Source: Alphaproteobacteria bacterium
GTDB taxonomy: Bacteria; Pseudomonadota; Alphaproteobacteria; RF32; CAG-239
Assembly: GCA_015062585.1 (NCBI GenBank)
Contig: SUUJ01000001.1
Span: 72,736 to 136,735, forward strand
Length of the DNA stretch: 64,000 nucleotides
Direction: 5' to 3'
Part shown: one piece after another, positions 29,252 to 59,485 of the stretch
How the letters are laid out: every line of letters starts with the position of its first letter
Position numbering within the stretch: the stretch's first letter is position 1
Position numbers and translations under genes: made by a program
The notes under the pieces: model-generated
Databases searched by the model: none
Told to the model about the DNA's origin: nothing
The model's input: only the letters and a program-made list of their open reading frames with translations

Positions 29252-29252
29252 A

Positions 29253-29615: not shown

Positions 29616-29619
29616 TAAA

Positions 29620-34106: not shown

Positions 34107-34108
34107 TT

Positions 34109-39791: not shown

Positions 39792-39802
39792 GATTGTTTT
39801 CT

Positions 39803-40855: not shown

Positions 40856-41690
40856 TGCTTCTTTCCTTAAGCATGTTTTTGATACCATCGTGATAGGGAG
40901 TAAAGTTAAATTCATTAATAATACTTTTTAGTAGAGTATTATCCGCCGTATATTCATTGTTCATACCATCTTGCTTAAATAATATAGAAAAATTACTATT
41001 GTTAACCTCATTAGCTATTTCAGCTAATCTTTTAATCGTTATGTCGTCGGTTTGTGTAACATTAATAAATTTATATTTAGGAAAATTTTTAATAAAATAT
41101 TCAACAATTTTACAAAGATCATCAATATAAATAAAACTAAATTTTACATTTTGATTAAGTTCTATATTCTTTTTGTTTATAATACTATTGATAATACAGC
41201 TTGTTACTCTGGTTGGATTTTCTCCTATTCCATAAACTCCAAACAGGCGAAGATTTAATATATTTTTGCTATTAGTAATCATTTTAGATATAACATATTT
41301 AGAATAGCCATATGGATCTTTAGGAACAGATTTGCCAAAATCTTCTTCTTTGACATTTGTTATATTTGTGCTTTTATCATACTCCGCTCCGGAACCAAGA
41401 ATAATCATTTTGCAGCTATCAGAAGTGTGTTCTGCCAAATTGTTAAACATTTCAATATTTGGTCTGGCTACATCATCATTTGTTGCACCAGGAGTTATTC
41501 TAACGCCCATAGCAGCGCAATGAATAATAAAATCTATTTTGTTTTTATCAAAATAATTAGCGACTTCTTGTTTATTCAATAGGTCCAATTCTGTTATCGA
41601 AGGAGTAAACAAGGTATAATTATCAAGTAAATAACTCTTTATGTGAGAGCCAATAAAACCATCAGCACCTGAAATGAAAATGTTGGTCAT
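40836..41690 (-). CDS. NAD-dependent sugar epimerase/reductase (YerF-like candidate)
   Basis: 'IFISGADGFIGSHIKSYL' Rossmann motif. 284 aa. Adjacent to the TPP enzyme and ddh genes. Confidence 0.6.
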   Translation of the reverse strand: MTNIFISGADGFIGSHIKSYLLDNYTLFTPSITELDLLNKQEVANYFDKNKIDFIIHCAAMGVRITPGATNDDVARPNIEMFNNLAEHTSDSCKMIILGSGAEYDKSTNITNVKEEDFGKSVPKDPYGYSKYVISKMITNSKNILNLRLFGVYGIGENPTRVTSCIINSIINKKNIELNQNVKFSFIYIDDLCKIVEYFIKNFPKYKFINVTQTDDITIKRLAEIANEVNNSNFSILFKQDGMNNEYTADNTLLKSIINEFNFTPYHDGIKNMLKERSNDFSKK

Positions 41691-43399
41691 TATAGTTCTT
41701 CCTTTTTTATTTGCTCTAATTCTTCATCAGAAATTAAAGGATGCATTTTATCTATAGTATTTCCAAACAGAACCTTAGGGGTAATTTGTGTACTCTGTTC
41801 AAATATAATATTTATCAATACATGATCGTTTGATTCTAGAAAATCATTTATCATATCATCTGTGAGGTCTTCAGCCCTGACTGTTATTCCATTAATTTTA
41901 TATGCATTGGCAACTAAAGAAAAATCAGGAGCTGAATAATCATGTACAGTCGATGCGTTTCTACCTTCAAAATATAAATCTTGAAATTGTCTAACCATAC
42001 CTAGACTAAAGTTATTCATAATCACTATTTTGATAGGTAAGTTTCTTCTTTTAATTATTTCTAACTCTTGAATATTCATTTGGAAACCGCCGTCTCCTGA
42101 TATTACAATACTTCGAGCTCCTGATATACTTGCGCCAATGGCTGCCGGTAGGGCAAATCCCATGCATCCCAGTCCACCAGATGATAAGTGCCGTGAATGT
42201 TCTTTTACAACTAAAGATTGTCCGACCCACATCTGATGTTGTCCGACATCTGAGCAAACAACATCATCATTATTCAACTTTTCGCTGATCTTCTTAATAA
42301 TTATGTTGGGTAAATTCTTGTTTCCATCCAAATCCTCTGTTGATGGATATTTTTTCTTTAACTGAAGAACTTTACTTTGCCAATTTGTAATATTTATATT
42401 CAATTCTTTTTGACATAATTGCTGGAAAAAACTATCTATGGATAAGTTAACGGTTATTTTATTCAGATTACTACACTTCAGTTGACCTTCATCTATATCA
42501 ACATGTATAATTTTTTTATTGTTAAAAATAGATGTATTAGCTCCTATTTGCCTGATATCCAACCTTGATCCTAAAACTAATATTGTATCAGCTATAGATA
42601 ACGCAATGTTAGCATATCTGTTTCCATAAGTGCCAATCATTCCCAAATTGTATATATACTCAGAAGGTACACAATCCAGACCTAATAAAGACTCTACAAC
42701 AGGAATTTGTGTTTTGTCCAAAAAATCTCTTAAATATTGTTGAGCCGAAGATAAACGCACGCCATTGCCAACAAGAATAATAGGAGATTTTGAAGAATTT
42801 ATAATATCAATAATGTTTTTTAGATCTATTTCATTTTGGGGAACGCAAGGAGCATAAAAAGACCTTGCTTTAGAAAAATCAAAATCAATTCGCTGAATAT
42901 CCATAGGAATATCAATTAAAACAGGACCTTTTCTACCATCCTGAGCAATAAAAAACGCTTTTTCAAGTTCATATCGTAAATTTTTAATATCATCAATAAG
43001 GACGGCATATTTTGTTATTGGTTTTGCCATAGAAACAATATCTGTTTCTTGGAATCCTGTTTGTCGTATTTCAGGAAACTTTTTATATTCAAAAGTATTA
43101 ACTTGCCCTGTTATAAATACTACAGGAGTAGAATCAAAATAGCAACTTGCCATAGGGGTTAATAAATTTGTTGCTCCAGGTCCTGATGTTGCTATTGCAA
43201 CAGATACTTTTCCTGTTACTCGGGAATATCCTTCTGCTGCAAAACCAGCCCCTTGTTCTGTGATGGTATTAACCATTTCAATATAATCTGATTGATAGAT
43301 GCTATCTGTGAGATGAGCAACCATTCCTCCAATATATCCAAAAATTTTAGAAATATTTTTCTGTATAAAAAAATCTACTATAAAGTCAGAAGCTTTCAT
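41690..43399 (-). CDS. thiamine-pyrophosphate enzyme of the acetolactate-synthase family (YerE-like branched-sugar synthase candidate)
   Basis: ALS-like N-terminal 'GYIGGMVAHL..EQGAGFAAEGYSRVTGKVSVAIATSGPGATNL'. 569 aa. Placed between ddhC and a reductase. Confidence 0.6.
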   Translation of the reverse strand: MKASDFIVDFFIQKNISKIFGYIGGMVAHLTDSIYQSDYIEMVNTITEQGAGFAAEGYSRVTGKVSVAIATSGPGATNLLTPMASCYFDSTPVVFITGQVNTFEYKKFPEIRQTGFQETDIVSMAKPITKYAVLIDDIKNLRYELEKAFFIAQDGRKGPVLIDIPMDIQRIDFDFSKARSFYAPCVPQNEIDLKNIIDIINSSKSPIILVGNGVRLSSAQQYLRDFLDKTQIPVVESLLGLDCVPSEYIYNLGMIGTYGNRYANIALSIADTILVLGSRLDIRQIGANTSIFNNKKIIHVDIDEGQLKCSNLNKITVNLSIDSFFQQLCQKELNINITNWQSKVLQLKKKYPSTEDLDGNKNLPNIIIKKISEKLNNDDVVCSDVGQHQMWVGQSLVVKEHSRHLSSGGLGCMGFALPAAIGASISGARSIVISGDGGFQMNIQELEIIKRRNLPIKIVIMNNFSLGMVRQFQDLYFEGRNASTVHDYSAPDFSLVANAYKINGITVRAEDLTDDMINDFLESNDHVLINIIFEQSTQITPKVLFGNTIDKMHPLISDEELEQIKKEEL

Positions 43400-44760
43400 T
43401 ATACAATACTCCGGATGAAGTCGTGAATAACCTTAGATGTCTTTTTCATATCTTCCGGAGTATTGTTCTGAGCAACACCTACCCAAAATGTGTGATTCAT
43501 TATAAATTCTGTTCCGGGTAAACTAGCATAATGTATTTCATGTAATTCTTTTGCATTCAATAACTCTGAACTACCAATCCGTAAATTGATATCATTTTCC
43601 ACAATCATTGGTTGACGCAAAATGTTACCCGCAAACAATTGACGTGTTCCAATGCCATTAGCTTCTAGATACTTTACCAAGTCTTGCTTAGTAAATGGAG
43701 CATTCTCCTTTACTGAAATTAAAAAACCAAACCATGATGGAGTACAATTTTCTGTAATTTTTGGTAAAATTAAATAATCTTCTAAATCAGATAGTTCTCG
43801 CAACAGTGTTTCTGCATTTTCTTTACGCATAGCTAAAAATTTATCTAATTTTTTAAGTTGGGCTAAAGCAATGGCTGCTTGCCAATCAGTAATCTTTAAG
43901 TTATAACCGATGTGTGAATATGTATATTTATGATCATAACCTTTCGGTAAATTGCCTAACTTTAAGTTAAATCGATTATGACAAGTATCATCACAACCAG
44001 GTTTACACCAGCAATCACGTCCCCAATCTCTAAAAGACATAATGATGCGGTGTAATATAGGATCATTAGTTACGACAGCGCCACCTTCACCCATTGTAAT
44101 ATGATGCGCAGGATAAAAACTATATGTTCCTATATGACCAATTGTTCCGGCATATTTACCATTCCATTTTGCACCCAATGCATCACAACTATCTTCAATT
44201 ACCCAAAGATTATATTTTTGAGCTAAATCCATAATTTTATCCATATCATACATATTACCCAATGTATGAGCTAAGAAAATTGCTCTGGTTTTAGGTGAAA
44301 TAGCTTCTTCAATTTTGTTTACATCAATATTATATGTTCCAACCTCACAATCAACAAATACGGGAATCATACCATTTTGAATAATAGGATTCACTGTCGT
44401 TGGAAATCCTGCAGCCACGGCAATAACTTCATCACCTTTCTTTAATGCTCTGTCTTGTAGCTTGTGAGATGTCAAAGCTGAAAATGCTAACAAGTTGGCT
44501 GACGATCCAGAGTTTGTTGTAAGTGCATATTTTACACCTAATTTTTGTGCAAAGTCTTTTTCAAATTCATCATTAAAACGACCGGAGGTCAACCACATAT
44601 CCATAGAAGCCTCAAACATATTTATAAGTTCTTCGCATCCAATATTTTTACCCGATGCTGGAATATATTTTTTTTCTCTTTTTGCTTTCTCTTCTTCTAA
44701 ACAATTAGCGTAATCTTTAGCTAAATCCAAAATTTGTTGTTTGATGCTTTCTTTATTCAT
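43399..44760 (-). CDS. ddhC: CDP-6-deoxy-D-xylo-4-hexulose-3-dehydrase (E1)
   Basis: DegT-family fold with 'SFYPAHHITMGEGG', i.e. His in place of the PLP-binding Lys, the hallmark of the E1 dehydrase. 453 aa. Confidence 0.75.
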   Translation of the reverse strand: MNKESIKQQILDLAKDYANCLEEEKAKREKKYIPASGKNIGCEELINMFEASMDMWLTSGRFNDEFEKDFAQKLGVKYALTTNSGSSANLLAFSALTSHKLQDRALKKGDEVIAVAAGFPTTVNPIIQNGMIPVFVDCEVGTYNIDVNKIEEAISPKTRAIFLAHTLGNMYDMDKIMDLAQKYNLWVIEDSCDALGAKWNGKYAGTIGHIGTYSFYPAHHITMGEGGAVVTNDPILHRIIMSFRDWGRDCWCKPGCDDTCHNRFNLKLGNLPKGYDHKYTYSHIGYNLKITDWQAAIALAQLKKLDKFLAMRKENAETLLRELSDLEDYLILPKITENCTPSWFGFLISVKENAPFTKQDLVKYLEANGIGTRQLFAGNILRQPMIVENDINLRIGSSELLNAKELHEIHYASLPGTEFIMNHTFWVGVAQNNTPEDMKKTSKVIHDFIRSIV

Positions 44761-44761
44761 A

Positions 44762-45853
44762 TTATAAACTCCAATCTATATTTTTTGCTTGTGCGTTTGC
44801 TACAAATTCATTGATTTGTTTTTTTGTAAAATCAACCATATCTGTATCGTTTTTATAAAAAGCTTTGTACCATTCTGTTGTTTTAATAATTGCTTCTTCT
44901 GCACTATAAACAGGTTTCACACCCAGTTCTTTTTCTGCTTTTTCAATGTTAAGTTGAAGTAGGTTAGCCTCATGCAATCCATCAGCTTTGCCGACTTCAA
45001 CTTTCCCATTTCCCCAAACCTCAGAAACTTTTTGTGCGACCTCACAAACTTTTACATCTTTATTCATTTCCGGTCCAAAATTATACCCCTGAGCATATTT
45101 AGAGCCTTCTTCTAATAATTTTTGTCCTAAACGCAGATATCCGGCTAATGGCTCTAATACATGTTGCCAAGGACGAGTTGCTAAAGGATTTCTTATAAAG
45201 ACAGTTTCATTTTGTTGAAATGCTTTAATACAATCTGGTATAAGCCTGTCTTTTGCCCAATCACCACCACCAATAACATTACCCGCACGACCGGATGCCA
45301 AAGCATAAGGTTTACCATCAGTCAAGAATGAACGACGATATGAAGATGTTAGAATTTCAGAACATCCCTTGGATGAGGAATAAATATCATATCCGCCCAT
45401 TGGCTCGTCTTCTTTATATCCTTCTTTTTTCTCTTTGTTTTCATAGCATTTATCTGTGGTTACATTCACAAAGGCCTTAACAGATGGTGTTTTACGTGCG
45501 GCTTCTAAAACTTTTAGTGTGCCAATAATATTAGTTTCATATGTTTCCACAGGTTCAGAATATGAAAGACGAACAATCGGCTGCGCGGCTAAATGGAAAA
45601 CGATGTCAGGATTATGCTTGGCAAAATATGTTTCTAACTTTTGGTTTTCTCGAATATCCGCAATTAAACTATCATCTAAAGTATTTTCTAAATTTAACAC
45701 TTTAAACAAATGTTTTTCAGTATCAGGCAAAAGAGAATATCCGACAACTTTAGCACCCATCTGCTTCAACCAAAATGCAAGCCAACTTCCTTTAAAACCC
45801 GCATGACCGGTAATTAATACGGTTTTATTTGAATAAATATTATTAAATAGCAT
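44762..45853 (-). CDS. ddhB: CDP-glucose 4,6-dehydratase
   Basis: 'VLITGHAGFKGSWLAFWL' N-terminus. 363 aa. Between ddhA and ddhC. Confidence 0.75.
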   Translation of the reverse strand: MLFNNIYSNKTVLITGHAGFKGSWLAFWLKQMGAKVVGYSLLPDTEKHLFKVLNLENTLDDSLIADIRENQKLETYFAKHNPDIVFHLAAQPIVRLSYSEPVETYETNIIGTLKVLEAARKTPSVKAFVNVTTDKCYENKEKKEGYKEDEPMGGYDIYSSSKGCSEILTSSYRRSFLTDGKPYALASGRAGNVIGGGDWAKDRLIPDCIKAFQQNETVFIRNPLATRPWQHVLEPLAGYLRLGQKLLEEGSKYAQGYNFGPEMNKDVKVCEVAQKVSEVWGNGKVEVGKADGLHEANLLQLNIEKAEKELGVKPVYSAEEAIIKTTEWYKAFYKNDTDMVDFTKKQINEFVANAQAKNIDWSL

Positions 45854-45854
45854 G

Positions 45855-46637
45855 TTAATTATTCCAAATCTTCCAAGGGGCTCTATTTTCAGCCCATAAT
45901 TGATTTAAATCTTGCTTATCTTTCAACATGTCCATCGGATGCCAAAAGCCTACATGTTTATATGCATTCAATTGTTTATCCCTAGATAAAGATAATAAGG
46001 CACTTTTTTCAAACATTAACTCATCTGAATTTTCTGGAAGATAATTAAATATCGCAGGTTCACAAATCATAAATCCGGCATTGATCCAAGATCCGCTTTC
46101 CTTAGGTTTTTCCGCAAAATTTGATATTGTTCCATCACCTTCAATTCCTAATGACCCATATTTACCTTCAGGTTGATATGCTGTTAATGTGCATATTTTT
46201 CCGGATTTCTTATGAGCTTCTAATAAGTCGGGGATAGATATATCTGCTACACCATCACCATATGTCAACATAAAAGGTTCATTACCAATATATTTTTGAG
46301 CCTTTTTAATTCGTCCTGCAGTTAGAGTGTTTCTTCCGGTATATAGCAAAGTAACTTTAAATGGTTCACAATGATTTTGGTGCACTGTTATATCATTTGT
46401 TGATAAATCAACAGTTACATCGGAGTTATTCATATAGTAATTAACAAAGTAATCTTTTATTACCTCTTGCTTATAGCCGGTTAAAATAACAAAATCATTA
46501 TAACCATAGTGAGAATATATTTTCATTATATGCCATAAAATAGGATATCCTCCAATTCCGACCATAGGTTTAGGTTTAATTGAAGTTTCTTCTCCTAATC
46601 TTGTTCCTAGGCCACCGGCCAATATTACTACTTTCAT
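45855..46637 (-). CDS. ddhA: glucose-1-phosphate cytidylyltransferase
   Basis: 'MKVVILAGGLGTRL..SIKPKPMV.IGG.PILWHIM' motif. 260 aa. Confidence 0.8.
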   Translation of the reverse strand: MKVVILAGGLGTRLGEETSIKPKPMVGIGGYPILWHIMKIYSHYGYNDFVILTGYKQEVIKDYFVNYYMNNSDVTVDLSTNDITVHQNHCEPFKVTLLYTGRNTLTAGRIKKAQKYIGNEPFMLTYGDGVADISIPDLLEAHKKSGKICTLTAYQPEGKYGSLGIEGDGTISNFAEKPKESGSWINAGFMICEPAIFNYLPENSDELMFEKSALLSLSRDKQLNAYKHVGFWHPMDMLKDKQDLNQLWAENRAPWKIWNN

Positions 46638-47473
46638 TTTTTATTTCTCCTCAATTTAATTTGCAATTTTCCGATATGATAAATCTTATGAGACGATGTT
46701 TTTTCCTTATATAAAAACGGCGGTTTCTTTCCACAAAATGCGTCAAACCTACGACGCATACTTTTTGCCAAAAAGTTATAATTTTGCTTGTACATATCCG
46801 TGTGAAATGAAAAAATTTTATTGAACGAAAAGGTATACTTTTCAAGACTATCACTCAGCTTGGTAATCATCGATACTTCATGTTGCCGGTAATAAAACAA
46901 AACCTCCGGAATTCTATACACTCCAACGCCGTTTTCAATCAGAGAAAGCCAAAATTCATAATCTTCTAAGCCATAAATCATTTCTTTCTTGTAACCACCG
47001 ACTTTTTCCCAATCTGATTTTCTAAACAATGCCGTACAAAAGATACGATTACTATTTAAGATATCAGGAAACTTATATTCTTTTAGGGGCCACAGTCCTT
47101 GTTTGGCTCCAAAAAACTCTGCCAAACAGTAAACTATTCCTATTTTATCATTATTCTCAATAACATTAACGGCCTTTTCAATATAGGTAGGCCCAATTTT
47201 ATCATCAGCATCAAGAGGCAAGATATACTTACCAGTTGCTGCTGCGATACCGGTATTGCGAGCTTCGGCCAATCCCTCATTTTGTTTGTTGATTACTTTT
47301 GTCTTAGGTTTGGAATAATTATTTAGTAAAGTATTAGTTGCTTCATCCGTTGAACCGTCATTAACAATAATTATTTCAATATCATCATAACTCTGTGCCA
47401 AGCATGAATTAACAGCCTCATCAACATATTGTCCGTGATTGTAACAAGGAATTACTATACTAACTCTAGGCAT
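46634..47473 (-). CDS. family-2 glycosyltransferase
   Basis: 'VSIVIPCYNHGQYV..DIEIIIVNDGSTD' GT2 signature. Confidence 0.7.
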   Translation of the reverse strand: MPRVSIVIPCYNHGQYVDEAVNSCLAQSYDDIEIIIVNDGSTDEATNTLLNNYSKPKTKVINKQNEGLAEARNTGIAAATGKYILPLDADDKIGPTYIEKAVNVIENNDKIGIVYCLAEFFGAKQGLWPLKEYKFPDILNSNRIFCTALFRKSDWEKVGGYKKEMIYGLEDYEFWLSLIENGVGVYRIPEVLFYYRQHEVSMITKLSDSLEKYTFSFNKIFSFHTDMYKQNYNFLAKSMRRRFDAFCGKKPPFLYKEKTSSHKIYHIGKLQIKLRRNKK

Positions 47474-47476
47474 ATA

Positions 47477-48334
47477 TTACTTCTCCTGCAATTTAATTAC
47501 AGATTTGCTTGCAAACAGCGGCAATTTCTTAAAAAGGTATACTTTTGTGAGATTTGCTTGTTTTTTGATTGTTATAAAAGGAATAAAACCAAACAGTCTT
47601 ATTCTTGTGGTATGCTTGGCTTTGAATAAAAATTCTTCATACAATTGCGGGTTGTCATTTTTTACAAAAGACCAAATACTCAAAGTTGCCTGACGCATTT
47701 TATCACTTTGTCGGTGTGAGGTATTTTGTCCGTGATCTCTGTAATGAAATAAAATCTCGTTCAAATTGTGAAAATTGGTAAAAGGTATCAGTCTGCACCA
47801 CAAAGCGTAGTCTTCAGAGGGTGAAAATTCTTCTTCATAACGGATGTTATTTTCAGTCAAAACTGATTTTCTAATCATGGCGGCCGAGTGGTTTATACTG
47901 CAAACCCTCATTAAAGCCAGTTTTATATCGTGGTTATTGCTCGGATTTCTGGATGTTTTGCCTCTTATCATGGTTTTGACCTTGCAAGAAACAACCCCGA
48001 CATCCGAATGTTCGTCTAAATAAGCTACTTGCTTTTCCAGTCTGTCGGGTAAAGATATGTCATCATGGTCAAAAACTGCCAGATATTCGCCACTTGCCAT
48101 ATCTATAAGCTTATTTCTACTTGGCGTAATTCCTAGATTTTGCTCATTTTTAGAATATTTTATGCGTTTGTCTTTGTATGATTTTACAATTTCTTCTCGG
48201 TCATCATCAGGACAATCGTCAAGAATCAAAAATTCAAAGTCCGAAAAGGTCTGATCGAGGATAGATTCTATAGCCTCTCTTAAATACTTTTCATTAGTTT
48301 TATATACAGGCATTAACACCGATACTTTGGGCAT
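47477..48334 (-). CDS. family-2 glycosyltransferase, copy 1 of an inverted duplicate pair
   Basis: 'VSVLMPVYKTNEKYL..FEFLILDDCPDDD'. ~95 % aa identity to 48560-49417. Confidence 0.75.
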   Translation of the reverse strand: MPKVSVLMPVYKTNEKYLREAIESILDQTFSDFEFLILDDCPDDDREEIVKSYKDKRIKYSKNEQNLGITPSRNKLIDMASGEYLAVFDHDDISLPDRLEKQVAYLDEHSDVGVVSCKVKTMIRGKTSRNPSNNHDIKLALMRVCSINHSAAMIRKSVLTENNIRYEEEFSPSEDYALWCRLIPFTNFHNLNEILFHYRDHGQNTSHRQSDKMRQATLSIWSFVKNDNPQLYEEFLFKAKHTTRIRLFGFIPFITIKKQANLTKVYLFKKLPLFASKSVIKLQEK

Positions 48335-48385
48335 TGCTAATCCTTTTCACTTTGAATTGTCCTAATTTTATGGAACACGACAGCT

Positions 48386-48544
48386 TATCCATAAACCACC
48401 GTTTACGGATAGTTATTCAAGAGGCTTTTGGTAAAGTTAAAAAAAATAAGGAAAAAGCTTGTATTTTCTATTTTTTTCCTTGCATTATTGTTTTTATTGG
48501 AGTAAGACTTTCACTATGTAATTTAAACGGTGGTTTATGGATAA
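48386..48544. promoter_or_regulatory. candidate invertible promoter segment: 117 bp bounded by perfect 21-bp inverted repeats
   Basis: ttatccataaaccaccgttta at 48386-48406 and its exact reverse complement at 48524-48544. Enclosed AT-rich segment contains TTGCAT/TTGTAT -35-like hexamers. Sits between two divergent operons. Confidence 0.5.
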
Positions 48545-48559
48545 ATAGAAGGAGTCAAA

Positions 48560-49417
48560 ATGCCTAGGGTCTCGGTATTGATGCCTGTTTACAAGACAAA
48601 AGAGAAATATTTGCGTGAAGCAATTGAAAGTATCTTAAACCAAACTTTTACAGATTTTGAGTTTCTTATTTTAGATGATTGTCCTGATGATGACCGAGAA
48701 AAAATTGTAAAATCATACAAAGACAAACGCATAAAATATTCTAAAAATGAACAAAATCTAGGAATTGCGCCAAGTAGAAATAAGCTTATAGATATGGCGA
48801 GTGGCGAATATCTTGCTGTTTTTGACCATGATGACATATCTTTACCCGACAGACTGGAAAAGCAAGTAGCTTATTTAGATGAACATCAGGATGTCGGTGT
48901 AGTTAGTTGTAAAATAAAAAATATGATTAGAGGTACAACCTCTAGAAATCCGAGCAATAACCACGATATAAAGCTGGCTTTAATGAGGGTTTGCAGTATA
49001 AACCACTCTTCCGCCATGATTAGAAAATCAGTTTTGACTGAAAATAACATCCGTTATGAAGAAGAATTTTCGCCTTCTGAAGACTATGCTTTGTGGTGCA
49101 GACTGATACCTTTTACCAATTTTCACAATTTGAACGAGATTTTGTTTCATTACAGAGATCACGGACAAAATACTTCACACCGACAAAGTGATAAAATGCA
49201 TCAGGCCACTTTGAGTATTTGGTCTTTTGTAAAAAATGATAATCCGCAATTGTATGAAGAATTTTTGCTCAAAGCCAAGCATACCACAAGAATAAGACTG
49301 TTTGGTTTTATTCCTTTTATAACAATCAAAAAACAAGCAAATCTCACAAAAGTATACCTTTTTGAGAAATTGCCGCTGTTTGCAAGCAAATCTGTAATTA
49401 AATTGCAGGAGAAATAA
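48560..49417 (+). CDS. family-2 glycosyltransferase, copy 2 of the inverted duplicate pair
   Basis: Near-identical to copy 1. Strong RBS aaggagtcaaaATG. Confidence 0.75.
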   Translation: MPRVSVLMPVYKTKEKYLREAIESILNQTFTDFEFLILDDCPDDDREKIVKSYKDKRIKYSKNEQNLGIAPSRNKLIDMASGEYLAVFDHDDISLPDRLEKQVAYLDEHQDVGVVSCKIKNMIRGTTSRNPSNNHDIKLALMRVCSINHSSAMIRKSVLTENNIRYEEEFSPSEDYALWCRLIPFTNFHNLNEILFHYRDHGQNTSHRQSDKMHQATLSIWSFVKNDNPQLYEEFLLKAKHTTRIRLFGFIPFITIKKQANLTKVYLFEKLPLFASKSVIKLQEK

Positions 49418-49420
49418 TAT

Positions 49421-50470
49421 ATGCCTAGAGTTTCGGTATTGATGCCTGTTCACAAGACAAAAGAGAAATATTTGCCCTTTATATCTTGTAAATTTAAACG
49501 AAAAATTACTACACTATTAGATTTAAAAAAACTCAGTGTAATTATAACTGTATATAATGAAAAACCCGAATATATCGAACGAGCAATAACATCTCTAAAT
49601 AATCAAAATTTTCAAAATCTTGAAATAATAGTTGTTAATGATGGTTCTAAAAATGAAGATACCATAAGGTTTTTAAATAATCTTAAACAAGATAACCTAA
49701 AAATAATTAACAAAGAAAACGGAGGACCGGGAAGTGCCAGAAATTTAGGATTACAACACACTTCTGGCGATGTCGTTGGATTTCTTGATGCTGATGATTG
49801 GGTAGAAAAAGATTTTTATTCCGAACTAATGTACAATTTAATAAGGTATAACGCAGATGTTGCATGTGGCGTTTTGATATGTAATGGCAAAAGTTATGAT
49901 AAATTTCCGCGATATATTGCCTCTACTGTTCAAGAAAAATTAAAATATATAAATAATGGTTCGGTTTGCTCAAAAATATTCAAAAAAGAATTGTTCAATG
50001 ACATAAAATTTTCCGAAGCCAAAATTTATTACGAAGATAATCCGGTTTTATTAAAGCTTTTGTTGCAAGCTGATAAAGTGTCTTTTAATCCAAAGGCTGA
50101 ATATATTTACTTTACCAATGATACATCCATAACCAGAAACAAAGATGAAAGTAAAGAACAAAAAAGAATAGATGATAGTGTGCTTATTTTAGAACAAATT
50201 AAAAAATGGGCTGATTCATATGATAAAAAAACATCTGATTTGATAATGCTGACGGTAGGTCAGATACTATTTCGTGCTTGGCAATATACTAAAAACGAGA
50301 ATTATCGCAAAAAAATAGATAAAATTTTTACAAAAGAACAAATGGCAATTCTTATAAAACCGCAATTAACATTTGCCCAAAAAATTTTCTCACTAAAAAA
50401 ATCAAAAGATAAATCTTATAAAATCATCACCTTTCTCGGATTTCAAATCAAATGGAGGCTCAAAAAATGA
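49421..50470 (+). CDS. family-2 glycosyltransferase with chimeric N-terminus
   Basis: First 18 aa (MPRVSVLMPVHKTKEKYL) and 55 nt are a third copy of the duplicated gene's 5' end. Then a distinct GT2 domain 'LSVIITVYNEKPEYI..IIVVNDGS'. Confidence 0.65.
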   Translation: MPRVSVLMPVHKTKEKYLPFISCKFKRKITTLLDLKKLSVIITVYNEKPEYIERAITSLNNQNFQNLEIIVVNDGSKNEDTIRFLNNLKQDNLKIINKENGGPGSARNLGLQHTSGDVVGFLDADDWVEKDFYSELMYNLIRYNADVACGVLICNGKSYDKFPRYIASTVQEKLKYINNGSVCSKIFKKELFNDIKFSEAKIYYEDNPVLLKLLLQADKVSFNPKAEYIYFTNDTSITRNKDESKEQKRIDDSVLILEQIKKWADSYDKKTSDLIMLTVGQILFRAWQYTKNENYRKKIDKIFTKEQMAILIKPQLTFAQKIFSLKKSKDKSYKIITFLGFQIKWRLKK

Positions 50471-51756
50471 GCCAGAAGAAAATATTTATAGTATCCCTAT
50501 CCGAGATTACACATGTTGTTGGTGGCGCAATTACCATAACAATAAATATGTGCAATTTTTTAGTAAAAGCCGGATATGAAGTATATTGTATTTGTTCTGA
50601 TAATATTGACGGCAGACCGCAGCAAATTGATGAAAAAGTAAATTTTATCAATTTGGCATACAGATATAATGGGCAACCGTTTTCTAAAGCGATAAATCAG
50701 TTGGCTGAAGAAGTTAAACCGGATTTGTTTATATTTTTCTTTTCCTTTTTATACGAGAATGCACAATTATCAGCTGGTTATATCAACACTCCTAAAGTGA
50801 TAATGTTTCACTCAAGACCTGATTTTTATTTTCAGAATAATTGCGACAAACTGAAAAAGCTATATTCTTGTGATAAAAATATTATATCGCAAATCTTGTT
50901 TGACAGTTATAAATCATTATTGCCTGATTTTATAAGGAATAGAAATGTTATAACCATTCCAAACGGTGTAAAAACAATTGATAAAACAATAAATACAGAC
51001 ATTGAACATAAAAAAATCATATATTTATCACGCATTAATTGTTGGAAAGGCTTAGAATTTTTAATCAACTCTTTTAAGTTGATTGCACAAAAATATCCTG
51101 ATTGGTCAATTGATATTTATGGTCAATCACAACCGGAAGAATATGTAAACGAACTAAAATGTTTAGTAAAAAAATTAAAGCTTGAAAAACAAATAAATTT
51201 TCAAGGAATAACAAGAAATCCTATAGAAACAATGATGAACTATGATTTTTGTGTATTTCCCTCATATTTTGAAGGATTTCCTATGGGGTTAATTGAATCA
51301 TTAAGTGTCGGATTACCTTGTATCGGTTTAGAAGAATGTTCCGGAGTTAATGAAATAATATCAGACGGTGAAAACGGATTTTTAGCACAAGAAGATTACG
51401 CAGACTTTTCTCAAAAAATAGAAGCCTTAATAAAAGACAAAGAGCTTAGAGAAAAAATGAGCCAAAAAGCTAAGCAAACAGCCGATAAATATGATAAGAA
51501 ACAGATTGATGAAAAATGGCTCTCTGTAATCAAAAATCTATTAAACAATGAGGCAATAAGTATAGAACAAACCCCGGATGTTAAAGGTAAGAAGTTATTT
51601 CCATTGGCTAAAATACAACAAATGTATAAACAGCAACACAAAAAATACATAAAGCCTTGGGATTATATCTTTTCTATCAAAAATTCTCAAAATAAAAAAC
51701 GCAAAATTATAACTGTTCTCGGTCTTCAAATTAAATTTAAAAGGAAGAGAAAATGA
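50452..51756 (+). CDS. family-4 (GT-B) glycosyltransferase
   Basis: 'EGFPMGLIESLSVGLPCIG' GT4 C-terminal motif. Confidence 0.7.
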   Translation: MEAQKMSQKKIFIVSLSEITHVVGGAITITINMCNFLVKAGYEVYCICSDNIDGRPQQIDEKVNFINLAYRYNGQPFSKAINQLAEEVKPDLFIFFFSFLYENAQLSAGYINTPKVIMFHSRPDFYFQNNCDKLKKLYSCDKNIISQILFDSYKSLLPDFIRNRNVITIPNGVKTIDKTINTDIEHKKIIYLSRINCWKGLEFLINSFKLIAQKYPDWSIDIYGQSQPEEYVNELKCLVKKLKLEKQINFQGITRNPIETMMNYDFCVFPSYFEGFPMGLIESLSVGLPCIGLEECSGVNEIISDGENGFLAQEDYADFSQKIEALIKDKELREKMSQKAKQTADKYDKKQIDEKWLSVIKNLLNNEAISIEQTPDVKGKKLFPLAKIQQMYKQQHKKYIKPWDYIFSIKNSQNKKRKIITVLGLQIKFKRKRK

Positions 51757-52979
51757 AAATCGTTTATGTTACAATGGAATATATCAATCCGGATAATCTA
51801 AATGTAATAGATGGTGGCTTAGCAAATTATTTGCATAAGATAACAACCTGTTTATATAAAATGGGACACGATATAACGGTTATTGTCGCGGATTCTTATC
51901 CTAATAAGCATATAGACTATAATGGAATAGATGTAATATATATAAATAATAAATTTCAAAAAAAACTAATTCAAAAAATATTATGGCCATTTATTACCAA
52001 AAAGAAGCGAAAGTTGTTAAAAAGAAACTTTTTGCATTACGCAATAAGTAACGCCATAAATAAAATTAATAAAAAAAATAAAATAGATGTTATACAGTAT
52101 GCCAGTTGCCGAGGGCTTGGAAGATATCCTCAAAAAGATATTCCGTCTTGTGTGAGAATATCCTCTTATGCAAAATTAATGCAAAAATTTTATAGTTATC
52201 ATGATGATTGTGAAATTGAAGCGGAAACTTTACAAATTAAAAATAATAAATTTATTTTTGGACCTTCTTCGCATATAGCCAATTATATTAAAGATGATTT
52301 GGGTGTAAATAAAGATATTAAAATAATCGAGTCACCTTATTCTGAATGCAAAATATCAGCAGATAACACTATATTAAATGAATTGCAAAGCAAAATTAAA
52401 AGTGCTCCATTTTTGTTATTTTTCGGTACTATAGGAGAATTAAAAGGGTGTAAGGTTATTGCAGATTGCATTTATGATATTTTAAACCAATATCCGAATT
52501 TACATATGGTGTTGGTTGGTAAAAATGCAACTTTTATCAATGATATTGATTACGCTCAAATAATTAATAAAAAGGCTAAAGAACATGCAAACAGAGTTAT
52601 TCGTTTTCCTAGCCTTCCTCATTCACAATTATATCCCCTTATAAGTAATTGTTTAGCTGTTGTAATGCCGTCTTTAACGGAAAATTTTTCCAATGCTTGT
52701 GTTGAAGCCATGCGCTTGAAAAAAATAGTTATCGGAACCGAAGGAAATTTTTCTCAGCTCATAACTGACGGGCAGAACGGATTCTTAGCAAAAGTGGGAG
52801 ATTCCGAAAGTCTCAAAGCTAAAATTGTCGAGGTTATGTCATTAAACGCAGATAAAAGACAAGAAATTGAAGAAAAATCATTTCAAAGGACAGAAAGCTT
52901 GTCGCCTGAAAATATATGCAATCAGCTTTTGGATTATTACAAATTTATCATTAAAAATTGGGAGAATAAAAATGAATAA
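51753..52979 (+). CDS. family-4 (GT-B) glycosyltransferase
   Basis: 'SLTENFSNACVEAMRLKKIVIGTEG' E-x7-E-like GT4 region. Confidence 0.65.
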   Translation: MKIVYVTMEYINPDNLNVIDGGLANYLHKITTCLYKMGHDITVIVADSYPNKHIDYNGIDVIYINNKFQKKLIQKILWPFITKKKRKLLKRNFLHYAISNAINKINKKNKIDVIQYASCRGLGRYPQKDIPSCVRISSYAKLMQKFYSYHDDCEIEAETLQIKNNKFIFGPSSHIANYIKDDLGVNKDIKIIESPYSECKISADNTILNELQSKIKSAPFLLFFGTIGELKGCKVIADCIYDILNQYPNLHMVLVGKNATFINDIDYAQIINKKAKEHANRVIRFPSLPHSQLYPLISNCLAVVMPSLTENFSNACVEAMRLKKIVIGTEGNFSQLITDGQNGFLAKVGDSESLKAKIVEVMSLNADKRQEIEEKSFQRTESLSPENICNQLLDYYKFIIKNWENKNE

Positions 52980-53730
52980 TACATCTGTCGGAATAATAGG
53001 ATGCGGTTTTGTCGGTGGCGCATTAAAGAGATGGCTAGAAGAACACAACCAATCAGTTAACATTCTTGTTTCTGACCCGCCAAAGGGAATGAATGATGAT
53101 GTATCAAAGTCTGATGTTATATTTATCAGTATTCATATACCGACAGAGGCTGACGGCACACAGGATTTGACATTGTTAACCGAGATAATCAATGGCTTGC
53201 CAATTGATAAACCGATATTTATCAGGACAACCATTGTTCCTGGTACTGCTGATAAGTTATCAATAAAAACAGGTCGAAATGTATATTTTATGCCGGAATT
53301 TTTAACTGAACGCACAGCTTATGAAGATTTTTGCTCGCAACCGATGATTTTTACAGCCGAAGAAGAGTTACTTAAAAATATCTTTATCGGAAAAAAATAT
53401 ATTACAATGACTTCTTTAGAGGCTGAAATAACAAAATATGCACACAATGTTTTTGGCGCACTGAAAGTTACTTATTTTAACGGTATTTATGACTTATGCA
53501 AAAAGATGGAAGCTAATTATCGTAAAATTCAACAAGGTATTTTGTTGAGCGGTTATATAAACGCTCCTCATACTATGGTACCGGGTCCTGACGGCAAATT
53601 CGGATATGGCGGAAAATGTTTTCCAAAAGATGTTAATGCATTAACCAAAATGACTGAAGGATTGCCAATATACAATTTGTTAAAAGAATTAAAACCATTG
53701 AATATTGAATTTAGAGGGGAAGATAAATAA
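52972..53730 (+). CDS. UDP-glucose 6-dehydrogenase-like protein, C-terminally short (~252 aa)
   Basis: 'VGIIGCGFVGGAL', 'FMPEFLTERTAYEDF', 'KYAHNVFGALKVTYFN', catalytic-Cys region 'GYGGKCFPKDVNAL'. ORF stops ~30 aa later, lacking the UDP-binding C-terminal domain. Confidence 0.55.
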   Translation: MNNTSVGIIGCGFVGGALKRWLEEHNQSVNILVSDPPKGMNDDVSKSDVIFISIHIPTEADGTQDLTLLTEIINGLPIDKPIFIRTTIVPGTADKLSIKTGRNVYFMPEFLTERTAYEDFCSQPMIFTAEEELLKNIFIGKKYITMTSLEAEITKYAHNVFGALKVTYFNGIYDLCKKMEANYRKIQQGILLSGYINAPHTMVPGPDGKFGYGGKCFPKDVNALTKMTEGLPIYNLLKELKPLNIEFRGEDK

Positions 53731-54749
53731 TGAAACTGCTTGTAACAGGAACAGCCGGTTTTATAGGGCATTTTGTAGCATTGCAACTGTTAAAAGACGG
53801 ACATGAAGTTGTTGGCGTTGATAATGTAAACGATTACTATGATGTAAATATAAAAGAGGCAAGATTAAAAAATTTGCACAAATTTGAAAATTTTATCGAG
53901 GCCAGAGTAGATTTGATTGATAGAAATGCTTTGGAAAAAATATTCAATGAACACAAGCCACAGCGTGTTCTAAATCTTGCAGCACAGGCCGGCGTCAGAT
54001 ATTCATTTGAAAATCCGTATGCCTATGTGGATTCAAATTTGATTGGCTTTGTAAATTTGGAAGAACAATGCAGACATCATAATGTAGAACATTTTGTGTT
54101 TGCCTCTTCGGCGTCCGTATATGGAGCCAATAACAAATTGCCTTGGGATGAAGCTGATGGTTGTAATCATCAATTGAGTCTTTATGCGGCTACTAAAAAA
54201 GCAAACGAGGTAATCGGACATTCTTATGCGCATTTGTTTAATCTTCCGACAACCGGATTAAGATTTTTTAACGCCTATGGACCTTGGGGACGCCCTGATA
54301 TGGCTTTGTTTATATTTGTTAAAAACATTATTGAAGGCAAACCCATAAATGTGTTTAACAACGGAAAAATGGTACGAGATTTCACCTATGTAGAAGATAT
54401 TGCAAGAGGTGTTTGCAAGGTATTACTCGGTCCGGTCCCGACAATTGATAAAAATTGGGATAGAGGCGCAACTGTTCCGGATCCTTCACGCAGCGGTGTG
54501 GCACCTTTCAGAATTTATAACATCGGTAATTCTAATCCTGTTGAACTAATGCGTTATATTGAGCTTATGGAAAAAGAAATCGGTAAAAAAGCTATTATCA
54601 ATTTTATGCCTATCCAACCCGGAGAAATCGTCAAATCAGAAGCAGACAATTCAGATTTGTACGAAACATTTGACTTCAAACCTCAAGTAAAGGTGGAGGA
54701 AGGTGTTCATAATTTTGTCAAATGGTATAGAGAATTTTACGGAGTATAA
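53730..54749 (+). CDS. UDP-glucuronate 4-epimerase (GalE/SDR family)
   Basis: 'LLVTGTAGFIGHFVA', 'YAATKKANE' YxxxK catalytic motif. 339 aa. Downstream of the Ugd-like gene. Confidence 0.7.
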   Translation: MKLLVTGTAGFIGHFVALQLLKDGHEVVGVDNVNDYYDVNIKEARLKNLHKFENFIEARVDLIDRNALEKIFNEHKPQRVLNLAAQAGVRYSFENPYAYVDSNLIGFVNLEEQCRHHNVEHFVFASSASVYGANNKLPWDEADGCNHQLSLYAATKKANEVIGHSYAHLFNLPTTGLRFFNAYGPWGRPDMALFIFVKNIIEGKPINVFNNGKMVRDFTYVEDIARGVCKVLLGPVPTIDKNWDRGATVPDPSRSGVAPFRIYNIGNSNPVELMRYIELMEKEIGKKAIINFMPIQPGEIVKSEADNSDLYETFDFKPQVKVEEGVHNFVKWYREFYGV

Positions 54750-54751
54750 AT

Positions 54752-55339
54752 ATGAGAATATTTAACAAAAAGAAAGGTTATGACGGATTACGAGAATTTT
54801 TTCTGTTTGGAATAAAAGTATACTCGTATAAGAGAAAAAACAAAAACTCTGAGCACAATAACCCTAACAAAGCTGAGTTATTAAAAAGTATGGGCGTTAT
54901 TATAGGTGATAATGTTAAAATATGGGGCATGCCTAATCTTCCTACCGAATACTTTTTTATAGAGATTGGTGATAATTCGACAATTTCTTCAAATGTTACA
55001 TTTTTAACTCATGATGGTTCTATGAATGCTTGTCGGGAATATTATAAAGGTTGGTATGAAACAATTCCCTCTCCTTTGGGTAAAATAAAAGTCGGAAAAA
55101 ATTGTTTTGTCGGAATAAACAGTATCATTTTACCAAATGTAATCATTGGAAATAATTGTGTAATCGGAGCCGGTAGTGTTGTAACCAAAAATGTTCCTGA
55201 CGGTGAAGTATGGGCCGGAAATCCTGCTCGTTTCATCAAAACGACCAAAGAGTTATCAGACAAATTTGAAATAATTATGAATAGCAAACAACAAGCAGAA
55301 CTTGACGAATTTGCTAGAAAACAAGGAGTTTATAAATAA
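54752..55339 (+). CDS. hexapeptide-repeat O-acetyltransferase (WbbJ/MAT-like) with basic N-terminal extension
   Basis: 'VGINSIILPNVIIGNNCVIGAGSVV' left-handed beta-helix repeats. Confidence 0.65.
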   Translation: MRIFNKKKGYDGLREFFLFGIKVYSYKRKNKNSEHNNPNKAELLKSMGVIIGDNVKIWGMPNLPTEYFFIEIGDNSTISSNVTFLTHDGSMNACREYYKGWYETIPSPLGKIKVGKNCFVGINSIILPNVIIGNNCVIGAGSVVTKNVPDGEVWAGNPARFIKTTKELSDKFEIIMNSKQQAELDEFARKQGVYK

Positions 55340-55341
55340 AA

Positions 55342-57642
55342 ATGTTCAGAGTTGAAAAAAACAATCATAAGATAAAAGTTAACGTACTAGGCTTAAAACT
55401 TTCCTTTAAGGAACGGAAATTTTTAAACCCTTTTAGGCATCCAGTATTTCGTAATGACGATGTATCCGTAGACTCTCATATGGAGCATTTTAAGGAATTT
55501 TGTGAGATTTTTCATAAATACGGCTATACACAGCTTCATGCAATTAACTTATACGGATATACAAACTGTAACTTTTTGACTAGTGGTTTACCGACTCCTT
55601 ATGAGGGCTATAAGAATTTAAGTGCAATTCCAAATGACAAAATAAGAGAACTTTCACAAGGCAAGTTTATTGGAGATAATAAAGAACTTGTAGATTATAT
55701 AAATTCTATTCCTGATGAGATCGCTCTGCATGGCCTTTATCATACAAATTATTCTACAATGTCTTATGATGAACAATACAAGGATATCGAGGAAGGATTA
55801 AGACTATTAAAAGAGTTATTTCCAAACAAGAAAGTAAAAGTTTTTGTAGCTCCGTTTAATAAAACAAATAAAGACACATATAAAGTGTGTAAAGTGTTTG
55901 GATTGCGTTTAAGCGCTCTTGAGGGACAACACCTTGAAGATATGATTGAATATCATAATTATGGAATAAAAAATGGTGAAATATATCGTTATCATCATCA
56001 CAGATTTTATCCGGAATCTACATTTAATAGCTATGATTTAAGTTTAGAAAAATTAGATAGATTTTTGGGCTATAAGAAGCATTCAAAACGTAAATTGCCT
56101 AATATAAATGTTTTTGCTGATATCGTACATAAGTATAATGCGCAGGAATGGTTTATATATTCATTTAATGATTTTAAAAACATACAACATGCCTATCTTC
56201 CATATAAATGGATTTTAAAAAACATAAAAAAGAAAAGAAGTATTCTTGCAACGGGCTGTGGTGTAGGCGATATGCTTTATCATTTATATAAAAACGGCTA
56301 TAAACATTTATCCGGTTATGACTATGACGAAAAAGCGATAAATGCAGCAAAAGAAATTACAGAAACAGTTTATGCTTCTATTGATTTTGCAGTGCAAGAT
56401 GGGCGGGACCCAAAGCTAAACAAGAAATACGATGTAATTGTTGGTGTAAATTGGATATATCATGTTCCTAACTATGGTTTAGAGGATTTTATTAAAGTAC
56501 ATGTCCCATATATTAATAGTGACGGATATTTTATTTTTGATACGGTTGATATTAAATACAACGAAGTGCCAAACAATCAATATGGGGTTCAAGATTGGGA
56601 CAAACCAGTAGAACAAAGACGACCAAGTGAATATTTATACAGATATTCAAAAGATGATGTTGAAAAACTTGCAAAAAAATATAATTGCGATGTTGTATAT
56701 TCAAAATTTATTGAAAATATAGTGCCTCATGCATTTTATGTTTTAAAAAGGAAAAAACTTCCCAAAATATGCCTGTTGTGTGACCGTCCGAATTGGGCAC
56801 ATGATCATAGTGCACAAGAAATAAAAAAGCAACTTTCTAATGATTTTGATATTGATATTAAATATGTAATCAAAAAACCAAAATTAAAACCTAGAAAATA
56901 TGACCTAATTCATGTATTTTTCTGGGGAGAAGATTATTATAAAAAATTTAAATTTCCTAAAAGTAAAATAATAAAACAAGTTTCATCACACAGATGGCAG
57001 GACAACCCTATGTATGGCCCTTTAACACCTGTTGAATTCCAAAAGAAATATTTGGATGATGCAAAATTTGTAAGCTGCCCTTCTAAGATTCTTTATGATT
57101 TATTAAAAGATGTATGTCCTAATTTGTTTTTGATTGGGAAAGGCTATTCTCCTAAGAAGTTCTATTACAAGAATGGTAGAGCAGGCGAGATGTCAATTTG
57201 TTGGGCAGGAAATATTAAAGATCCGGTAAAAGGGGTTGAAGAAATATTAATTCCTGCAACAAAAGATAAATATAACTTGAATTTGGCTTCAGATTTAAAA
57301 CATGAGGAATTGTTTGATTTTTACAATTCAAATGACATTTATGTCGTTACTTCACGCAATGAAGCCGATCCGTTGCCTTTGATAGAATCAATGGCTTGTG
57401 GTTGTTTCCCTGTAGCGAACTATGTGGGTATCGCTCCGGAATTAATTCGTCATAAAGAAAACGGATATTTGGTTAAAGAAAGGACTGTTGAAGCTTATCA
57501 AAAAGCTTTTGAATGGTGTAAGAATAATATTGAATATATTAGAAGCCAACAGGAAAAAATATCAAAAGAAATTTATGAAACTCGCCGTTGGGAAATCAAG
57601 GCACAAGAATATAAAAAGATGTATGATGAATGTTTGAAATAA
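55342..57642 (+). CDS. multidomain protein: deacetylase-like region + SAM-methyltransferase + GT4-like C-terminal domain
   Basis: 'ILATGCGVGDMLYHLYKNGYKHLSGYDYDEKAI' class-I MTase motif I. C-terminal 'ADPLPLIESMACGCFPVANYVGIAPELIRHKENGYLV' GT-B motif. Confidence 0.55.
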   Translation: MFRVEKNNHKIKVNVLGLKLSFKERKFLNPFRHPVFRNDDVSVDSHMEHFKEFCEIFHKYGYTQLHAINLYGYTNCNFLTSGLPTPYEGYKNLSAIPNDKIRELSQGKFIGDNKELVDYINSIPDEIALHGLYHTNYSTMSYDEQYKDIEEGLRLLKELFPNKKVKVFVAPFNKTNKDTYKVCKVFGLRLSALEGQHLEDMIEYHNYGIKNGEIYRYHHHRFYPESTFNSYDLSLEKLDRFLGYKKHSKRKLPNINVFADIVHKYNAQEWFIYSFNDFKNIQHAYLPYKWILKNIKKKRSILATGCGVGDMLYHLYKNGYKHLSGYDYDEKAINAAKEITETVYASIDFAVQDGRDPKLNKKYDVIVGVNWIYHVPNYGLEDFIKVHVPYINSDGYFIFDTVDIKYNEVPNNQYGVQDWDKPVEQRRPSEYLYRYSKDDVEKLAKKYNCDVVYSKFIENIVPHAFYVLKRKKLPKICLLCDRPNWAHDHSAQEIKKQLSNDFDIDIKYVIKKPKLKPRKYDLIHVFFWGEDYYKKFKFPKSKIIKQVSSHRWQDNPMYGPLTPVEFQKKYLDDAKFVSCPSKILYDLLKDVCPNLFLIGKGYSPKKFYYKNGRAGEMSICWAGNIKDPVKGVEEILIPATKDKYNLNLASDLKHEELFDFYNSNDIYVVTSRNEADPLPLIESMACGCFPVANYVGIAPELIRHKENGYLVKERTVEAYQKAFEWCKNNIEYIRSQQEKISKEIYETRRWEIKAQEYKKMYDECLK

Positions 57643-57652
57643 GGAGAATGTT

Positions 57653-58379: not shown

Positions 58380-58397
58380 TATTTATAGGATAAAGAA

Positions 58398-59480: not shown

Positions 59481-59485
59481 TAAAA

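Follow-up and report, generated by a model that had tools for sequence, protein, structure and literature searches.

Invertible promoters of surface-glycan genes are a hallmark of gut Bacteroidales and shape the interactions of these bacteria with the immune system and with phages. The core of the Bacteroides Mpi site is ARACGTWCGT. In Bacteroides, Mpi inverts promoters at 7-13 capsular polysaccharide loci (PMC10403206). The locus described here lies on contig SUUJ01000001.1 of an uncultured low-GC alphaproteobacterium, within a stretch of 64,000 nucleotides (nt) that was analysed as a whole and is called the window below. It contains two twin genes for family-2 glycosyltransferases (GT2), placed head to head, a short spacer with inverted repeats between them, and a gene for a DNA invertase. 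The locus is read here, with moderate confidence, as an Mpi-like invertible promoter that directs transcription to one or the other of two divergent glycan operons, with one of the GT2 genes at the head of each.

Comparison with the Bacteroides systems shows clear likenesses. The window invertase, like Mpi of Bacteroides fragilis, is a small serine recombinase and matches the same NCBIfam family over its full length. As at the Bacteroides capsular loci, a short segment between inverted repeats lies before glycan operons, with the promoter being putative here, and one invertase likely serves sites at a distance. The conserved GT2 first gene presumably parallels the conserved upxY/upxZ heads of the Bacteroides operons. 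However, the host is an alphaproteobacterium, the site reads CCATAAAC-CACC-GTTTATGG, and the head gene is an enzyme gene duplicated in inverted orientation. Moreover, a single inverton (invertible segment) stands between two divergent operons and would select a glycan rather than turn one on or off.

In the Hin/Gin-type systems, a Fis-bound recombinational enhancer acts in cis and the invertase gene is located inside or beside the invertible segment. The sites in the window resemble those of Hin, Gin, Cin and Pin. Each is an imperfect dyad of 26 bp whose central dinucleotide is non-palindromic, and the dinucleotides of the two inverted sites are complementary to each other. We take this layout to be the hix/gix architecture of serine invertases, and the half-site TTATCCATAAAC appears to resemble the gix half-site, which we take to be TTATCCAAAACC. 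However, the segment is about 130 bp long compared with 1-4 kb, and the invertase gene is not inside it. Unlike in hin, gin and cin, the gene is 10.5 kb away from the segment, and the sequence identity of the window invertase to Gin is low. A Fis-dependent enhancer has not been identified in the window, but no search aimed at one was made. In the Campylobacter fetus sap system, a promoter region lies between oppositely oriented homologous genes and its inversion changes the homologue expressed. This inversion is RecA-dependent, uses the conserved 5' regions of the genes as substrate and flips kilobases. Similarly, inverted homologous genes with long identical stretches (858-bp arms) flank the spacer in the window. 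However, their 5' regions are the most diverged parts and a site-specific module is present in addition. As is proposed here, promoter inversion produces two alternative surface phenotypes in Salmonella hin and Escherichia coli fimS. However, fimS uses tyrosine recombinases instead of a serine invertase, and exclusivity in Salmonella is achieved through a repressor co-expressed from one orientation, whereas here a single promoter would be directed at two divergent operons. The hin system of Salmonella gives either/or antigen expression (PMC11868660).

The spacer, its sites and the invertase

The features of the locus are listed below with their positions in the window.

37307-37894, plus strand: small serine recombinase, Mpi-like DNA invertase, 195 aa (PF00239, 102 bits)
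47439-48345: left arm of the long inverted duplication, partner 48549-49455 (repeat search)
47477-48334, minus strand: GT2-A, 285-aa family-2 glycosyltransferase, gene 1 of the left operon (PF00535, 109.6 bits)
48335-48384, minus strand: GT2-A leader, 50 nt, with an AAAGGA ribosome-binding site, outside the invertible segment (read from the sequence)
48385-48405: left 21-bp inverted repeat, TTATCCATAAACCACCGTTTA, one of a perfect pair
48386-48411: left 26-bp dyad site, TATCCATAAAC-CACC-GTTTACGGATA, centre dinucleotide AC
48406-48523: putatively invertible core, 118 bp between the paired repeats, candidate carrier of the promoter
48476-48523, plus strand: promoter-like block TTGCAT..ATTGGAGTAAGAC..TATGTAATT, conserved, abutting the right repeat and directed to GT2-B
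48518-48543: right 26-bp dyad site, GTAATTTAAAC-GGTG-GTTTATGGATA, centre dinucleotide GT
48524-48544: right 21-bp inverted repeat, the other one of the perfect pair
48545-48559, plus strand: GT2-B leader, 15 nt, with an AGGAG ribosome-binding site only (read from the sequence)
48549-49455: right arm of the long inverted duplication, partner 47439-48345 (repeat search)
48560-49417, plus strand: GT2-B, 285-aa family-2 glycosyltransferase, gene 1 of the right operon (PF00535, 111 bits)

The spacer between GT2-A and GT2-B is 225 bp long, and its perfect 21-bp inverted repeat encloses 118 bp. No such pair was obtained in 100 shuffles. An earlier note on this DNA had called the untranslated regions of the two genes unrelated, which is true for the leaders but overlooks this perfect repeat. 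Each 21-bp arm sits in an imperfect 11-4-11 dyad with the half-sites TATCCATAAAC and TATCCGTAAAC. The centres of the two dyads, AC on the left and GT on the right, are complementary, that is, the sites have identical 2-bp crossover cores in inverted orientation. Complementary non-palindromic centres are required for inversion by 2-nt staggered cuts.

Only 15 nt separate the start codon of GT2-B from the right repeat, and 50 nt separate that of GT2-A from the left repeat. With leaders this short, no fixed promoter fits outside the invertible segment. Thus, the transcripts of both operons must start in or pass through the segment, and the promoter of GT2-B must be located inside or beyond the core. 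An alignment showed that a promoter-like block (TTGC-T...ATTGGA-TAAGA...TAT-TAAT) abuts one repeat and points outward in the window and in two related loci (L007 and L006), and the block is also recognizable by eye in a third one (L009). Its -10-like hexamer is 0-2 nt from the right repeat, as in the inverton of a further relative (L035).

The invertase gene is located at the far end of the left operon and is convergent with the operon end. The protein starts with MIYGYCRISTTHQ and has an N-terminal catalytic domain with the Tyr-x-Arg-x-Ser motif and a C-terminal helix-turn-helix, for which the HTH_7 match is weak (20 bits, under the cut-off). It aligns over its full length with NF009949, the master DNA invertase Mpi family of NCBIfam (E=3e-78). 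Its best solved relative is the Gin invertase, matched over the full length with E=1e-11, and gamma-delta resolvase also matches. Homologues with 83-85% identity in alphaproteobacterial metagenome-assembled genomes (MAGs) have the NCBI name 'master DNA invertase Mpi family', and the exact window protein is named only 'invertase'. Separately, the half-site-like TTATCCAAAA occurs in a sequence that precedes the start codon of the invertase gene by about 120 nt (37164-37191, GTTATCCAAAAGGGGATTTAAAATTAAG); it may be a lone binding site of the invertase or may have arisen by chance.

In the proposed switch, the invertase would pair the two hix-like 26-bp sites of the spacer and cut at their central AC/GT dinucleotides, inverting the roughly 132 bp in between. 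In the orientation seen, transcription from the promoter-like block would cross the right repeat and enter GT2-B with the other genes of the right operon. Once inverted, the block would face the other way, and transcription would cross the left repeat and enter GT2-A with the left operon, which is predicted to make a CDP-dideoxy or branched-sugar glycan. A clonal population would consist of cells with one glycan or the other. Operons of this kind have this GT2 as a conserved first gene in this group of bacteria, which would be the reason why both start with it. Occasional gene conversion would keep the two copies similar, giving a mosaic divergence. The action of this invertase on these sites, the presence and direction of a promoter in the core and the continued flipping of the locus are inferred; the glycan affected is deduced in the same way. 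The earlier note had considered two specificity variants expressed alternately. The anatomy of the spacer points to alternate expression, but of the copies together with their whole operons.

Related invertons and the orientation of the locus

The exact 21-mer TTATCCATAAACCACCGTTTA recurs in an alphaproteobacterial MAG from the Hadza gut (L007) and in an ENA contig (L006). The cores of L007 and L006 are homologous to that of the window with about 68% identity, and their flanks are unrelated. Their inverton also lies between divergent sugar operons, with cytidylyltransferase/GMD genes on one side and RmlA/RmlC genes on the other. Scans with the exact 21-mer found one other locus each in the metagenome and the genome collections, both in one orientation, and no match in the viral collection. 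The JGI contigs with the locus of the window lay outside the metagenome collection scanned.

A homologous inverton with the repeat CCATAAACCAAC is located between the invertase gene and the operon in loci whose GT2 heads are 82% identical (L009-L015). The invertase gene of L009-L014 is 81% identical to that of the window at the DNA level. In L009, the inverton (4443-4675) separates a divergently transcribed invertase gene from the glycan operon, and a flip might also affect the expression of the invertase. A second inverton in L009-L015, suspected from a small open reading frame (ORF) downstream of GT2 of either 38 or 46 aa, was rejected since the difference is a single-nucleotide polymorphism in a stop codon.

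The equivalent segment flips in a related species. The loci L035-L038 and L040-L042 have a GT2 head 75% identical to GT2-B and an inverton with a core of ~106 bp (~140 bp with repeats) between 17-bp inverted repeats (TAACGAACGATTGTTTT). This inverton sits between an Mpi-like invertase gene, whose product is 53% identical to that of the window, and the operon. The core has one orientation in L035-L038 and the reverse in L040-L042, with identical flanks. A good TTGAAA-17-TATAGT promoter abuts the operon-side repeat of the L035 inverton.

Further observations concern the surroundings of these relatives. An 811-bp stretch with an HU-like DNA-binding gene upstream of the invertase is inverted between L037 (1206-2016) and L035 (1652-2462) at 99.6% identity. 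It was rejected as an inverton, since it has no obvious terminal repeats and lies in differing prophage contexts. The first gene behind the inverton and before GT2 encodes a 200-aa resolvase-like protein in L035 (3406-4008) and L025 (4406-5008), in which catalytic-motif positions are altered (YFDET and YLDCS instead of YxRxS). Judged by these changes, the protein may be an inactive recombinase paralogue, serving as a regulator or an accessory factor of inversion. In L019-L024, which are six identical contigs, 80%-identical GT2 heads begin an rmlACBD-type operon downstream of a tRNA gene. About 70 nt upstream of the GT2 start there is one site, AAACGTTCGTTT, for which no partner repeat is seen and which presumably matches the Bacteroides Mpi core.

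Flipping of the window locus is expected to create the junctions A-leader/repeat/AATTACATAG and B-leader/repeat/CGGATAGTTA, for which GACAGC-TTATCCATAAACCACCGTTTA-AATTACATAG or CCG-TAAACGGTGGTTTATGGATAA-ATAGAAGG would be diagnostic. Look-ups of contigs with a 230-nt flank returned two informative contig ends and no flipped contig. Both ends are from sample 3300018494. The contig of GT2-B (92 kb) begins exactly at 48524, the first base of the right repeat at its inner edge. The contig of GT2-A (58 kb) continues past the left repeat for 102 nt into the core. Its end at 48507 is at a distance of exactly 124 nt from the last base specific to A. A k of 123 is, we assume, the MEGAHIT setting of JGI. 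With this k, one extra junction of the form 'B-leader + repeat + CGGATAG...' would give both contig ends. A 21-bp repeat alone cannot break a graph of k=123. The pair of ends suggests, but does not prove, that a flipped junction co-exists in this sample. About six flipped contigs had also seemed to emerge from a census, in which a 65-aa ORF spanning the core in its native orientation was found on 16 contigs and the GT2 genes on 21-22. These were rejected as an effect of the gene caller, since only the JGI records list the ORF. No ORF of more than 33 aa runs across a junction in the flipped sequence, so that a protein look-up could not find the flipped state.

The gene pair, the repeats with their dyad geometry, the invertase gene, the homologous invertons and the inversion of the equivalent segment in a relative are direct observations. 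Several points, however, weigh against a toggle at the window locus. At least 16 JGI contigs and the window have one orientation, and no flipped assembly of this locus was found among them. The argument from the contig breaks is indirect, as it needs only one of the two flipped junctions and depends on an assumed k. The invertase scores 262.1 bits on NF009949, 10 below the cut-off of 272, and is therefore a borderline case, a relative of the Mpi family rather than a certified member. Its gene is 10.5 kb from the sites, and the enzyme and the sites are linked by association only. A consensus scan found no canonical sigma-70 promoter on either strand of the spacer, and the presence and direction of the promoter are deduced from conservation and geometry. 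If the core had promoters in both directions, a flip could swap promoter strengths rather than act as a strict toggle.

The most probable of the alternatives is a one-sided ON/OFF switch. In this case the segment flips but controls one operon only, most simply the right one with its ATG 15 nt from the repeat, and the other operon depends on a separate promoter or on read-through, so that the glycans are not mutually exclusive. Such a switch is considered unlikely, yet it retains an appreciable share of the probability. Classical invertons, including L009 and L035, are single-operon ON/OFF switches, all assemblies are in the same 'B-on' orientation, and the core has weak leftward promoter-like matches (TAGAAA-16-TATTTT, 8/12). 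However, the A leader is only 50 nt long without a promoter-like site, and the read-out of the core enters one of the two operons in either orientation. Furthermore, the L007 inverton also stands between divergent sugar operons, which suggests a deliberate two-sided layout.

Mosaic GT2 twins and probable homologous exchange

The head-to-head GT2 pair reported in the earlier note is real. Both ORFs encode 285 aa, with PF00535 scores far above the gathering cut-off (109.6 bits for GT2-A and 111 bits for GT2-B vs. 23.3), and both have an acidic DxD-type motif, DHDD, at aa 89-92. A search of the NCBIfam profiles reached no equivalog for either protein. The long inverted arms of 907 nt each are 90% complementary according to the repeat search. 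A base-by-base comparison showed that exactly 14 aa, as had been estimated, and 76 of 861 nt differ. As also described before, the homology stops at the start codons, the ATG being the 5' limit; on the 3' side the similarity persists for 12 nt after the stop codon, reaching the ATG of the following gene, before it fades. The exact GT2-A protein is found on 22 contigs and the exact GT2-B protein on 21. The head-to-head pair is also present on JGI contigs from samples 3300022661, 3300018495 and 3300018475, a 924-bp contig of sample 3300023715 covers the 5' part of A, the spacer and the 5' part of B, and an NCBI alphaproteobacterial MAG has the four genes as the consecutive proteins MBE6467087-90.

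The description of the twins as near-identical holds for these totals but conceals a mosaic. The nucleotide differences fall into nt 0-117 (36), nt 318-387 (18) and the remaining 669 nt (22). Accordingly, the identity is 71-82% in nt 0-156 and 77% in nt 312-390, compared with 95-97% elsewhere. Clustering at the observed level was reached in none of 5000 permutations. The synonymous divergence (dS) is saturated in the two patches and 0.11-0.14 elsewhere. The overall ratio of non-synonymous to synonymous divergence (dN/dS) is 0.085, indicating purifying selection on both copies. As for the specificity variants of the earlier note, most of the 14 amino acid changes are conservative, yet four lie within aa 108-130, which are hypervariable across the family.

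Comparisons with other alleles suggest the origin of this pattern. V103 and V265 are common to GT2-A and GT2-B, compared with A103 and I265 in all ten other alleles of the 90% cluster. The alleles in this cluster are a/b mosaics. In the divergent patches, the close strains L016, L018 and L008 are all of the A type, and the second-patch version of GT2-B (KIKNMIRGTTS) recurs in more distant homologues. This pattern indicates that patchwise gene conversion among old paralogues, rather than a young duplication, has shaped the twins. Gene conversion or concerted evolution, as offered in the earlier note, is thus supported by the clustered substitutions, the patchy dS and the two valines common to both copies.

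Two side observations concern the history of the head gene. At 49421-49475 on the plus strand, the repeat search found that 55 nt from the 5' end of GT2-B are directly repeated with 95% identity. This copy is joined in frame to the following GT2 gene (MPRVSVLMPVHKTKEKYLP...), in which the Pfam domain begins only at residue 39. The copy is also present in the sister strain L016 and looks like a scar of an earlier rearrangement or head-gene exchange. GT2 proteins annotated in Campylobacter lanienae (P0177 and P0180) are 72% identical to GT2-B, which suggests that the head gene may have moved horizontally between gut Campylobacterota and Alphaproteobacteria.

The mosaic bears on the second alternative, in which RecA-type homologous inversion between the 858-bp arms is itself the working switch, as in C. 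fetus sap. A crossover inside the GT2 genes would then flip the spacer and join the promoter and a 5' part to the other operon. The arms have long identical runs (the longest being 95, 62, 61, 56 and 49 nt), and the allele cluster contains a/b mosaics. In a sister strain (L016/L017, 95.5% identity), an A-type leader and 5' half are found on the right operon, the 3' half of GT2 in L016 not being diagnostic for the recombinant arrangement. Two assemblies of this strain have a common break point 43 nt before the ATG, which fits an inverted repeat that includes the leader in that strain. However, the 5' end is the most divergent part of the genes (71% identity, dS saturated), which is the opposite of sap. 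The dedicated site-specific module in the spacer would be redundant, the mosaic could come from rare evolutionary events rather than a programmed switch, and the reciprocal product is on no contig. Homologous inversion as the working switch is therefore improbable. RecA-mediated inversion, which the earlier note had put forward, gives way as the main mechanism to a spacer with 21-bp repeats, hix-like sites and an Mpi-like invertase in the same window. Homologous exchange between the GT2 copies probably happens over evolutionary time, and the diverged 5' ends together with the dedicated module place homologous inversion among the evolutionary processes rather than the working switches.

In other strains, the same leader and GT2 head are joined to quite different downstream cassettes (L008, L018, L019 and L025). 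The GT2 head gene therefore behaves as a shared homology module for operon reshuffling. A tentative extension of the proposed toggle is a two-layer glycan selector for the decoration of flagellin or lipooligosaccharide. The inverton would aim the promoter, and the GT2 head with its leader would serve as a movable cassette of homology, by which gene conversion or homologous inversion would pair operons anew with the switch.

Little credence is given to a static locus, in which the divergent operons have fixed promoters, the GT2 duplication is merely recent and the 21-bp repeats are an inactive relic of an inverton, an operator or an RNA stem. The single orientation in at least 17 assemblies and the lack of a canonical promoter that would support a switch are in agreement with it. 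However, the repeats are perfect while the homologous cores and flanks retain no more than about 68% identity, which speaks for selection acting on the sites. The invertase gene has been kept intact, the equivalent element flips in a relative, and a contig breaks exactly at the repeat edge. An Rfam scan found no RNA family, its 18-bit match being at chance level against a gathering score of 100.

An assembly artefact, in which a collapsed or mis-joined repeat produced a false inverted pair, is effectively refuted: inverted repeats of this size do break assemblies, and contigs end inside GT2-B (sample 3300018475) and near the spacer (sample 3300018494), but the copies differ at 76 positions with a codon-aware structure and the arrangement recurs in several independent assemblies and in the NCBI MAG with its four consecutive accessions.

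The glycan operons and the meaning of a proposed two-sided switch

The remaining genes of the two operons, as identified with Pfam, are as follows.

37920-47473, minus strand: rest of the left operon, with GT2, RfbF, RfbG, RfbH, a thiamine pyrophosphate (TPP)-dependent enzyme, a reductase, GT2 and a double-GT2
49421-60901, plus strand: rest of the right operon, with GT2, two GT4, a UGDH-like protein and an epimerase, then a hexapeptide acyltransferase, a deacetylase-methyltransferase-GT4 fusion, a TupA-like ATP-grasp protein and a GT1-like protein

RfbH reaches its NCBIfam equivalog with 667 bits against a cut-off of 423, and the predicted product of the left operon is a glycan with a branched or dideoxy CDP-sugar. 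RfbF, RfbG and RfbH are encoded at 41690-46637 together with the TPP enzyme, which is acetolactate-synthase-like, and the reductase, a set that presumably resembles the pathway of a yersiniose-type branched 3,6-dideoxyhexose. The two operons form a 23-kb glycan island between flagellar genes, with an FlgE-like hook protein and a GtrA-like protein (33657-35320) on one side and FlaF (61117-61482) on the other. A Pfam scan of the ORFs with 120 aa or more found no Wzx, Wzy or ABC exporter and no initiating transferase. These neighbours and this lack suggest that the glycan may be a decoration of flagellin or lipooligosaccharide and not a capsule or O-antigen.

A prophage-like block at 12400-30300 encodes an S24 repressor-like peptidase (14862-15563), a large terminase (16974-18299), tail-collar/fibre proteins (26475-27248 and 27623-29251) and a lysozyme (29811-30281). 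The invertase and the GT2 operon directly adjoin phage tail genes in the relatives L025 and L035. The prophage with tail-fibre genes is 18 kb away, which makes phage evasion a plausible selective force.

The kind of inverton is known, the closest being the Bacteroides Mpi/capsule invertons and the Hin/Gin invertases, and NCBI already labels the recombinase family. The locus differs from these systems in the host, the site sequence, the two-sided layout and the duplicated enzyme head gene. In the literature covered, outside which several key papers lay, neither Mpi-type invertons in Alphaproteobacteria nor an inverton aimed at two divergent glycan operons are described. The findings suggest that a related invertase of the Mpi-like kind is in use in uncultured Alphaproteobacteria of the gut or rumen. 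The site motif TATCCATAAAC-CANC-GTTTATGGATA can be used by inverton-finding pipelines in this clade. If the proposed toggle is true, one flip would pick between two complete glycan programmes, which is more economical than switching each locus on and off. Mutual exclusivity would be built in, without the trans-acting regulators that Bacteroides needs. The toggle would also explain why a biosynthetic gene is retained as an inverted, partly homogenised duplicate.

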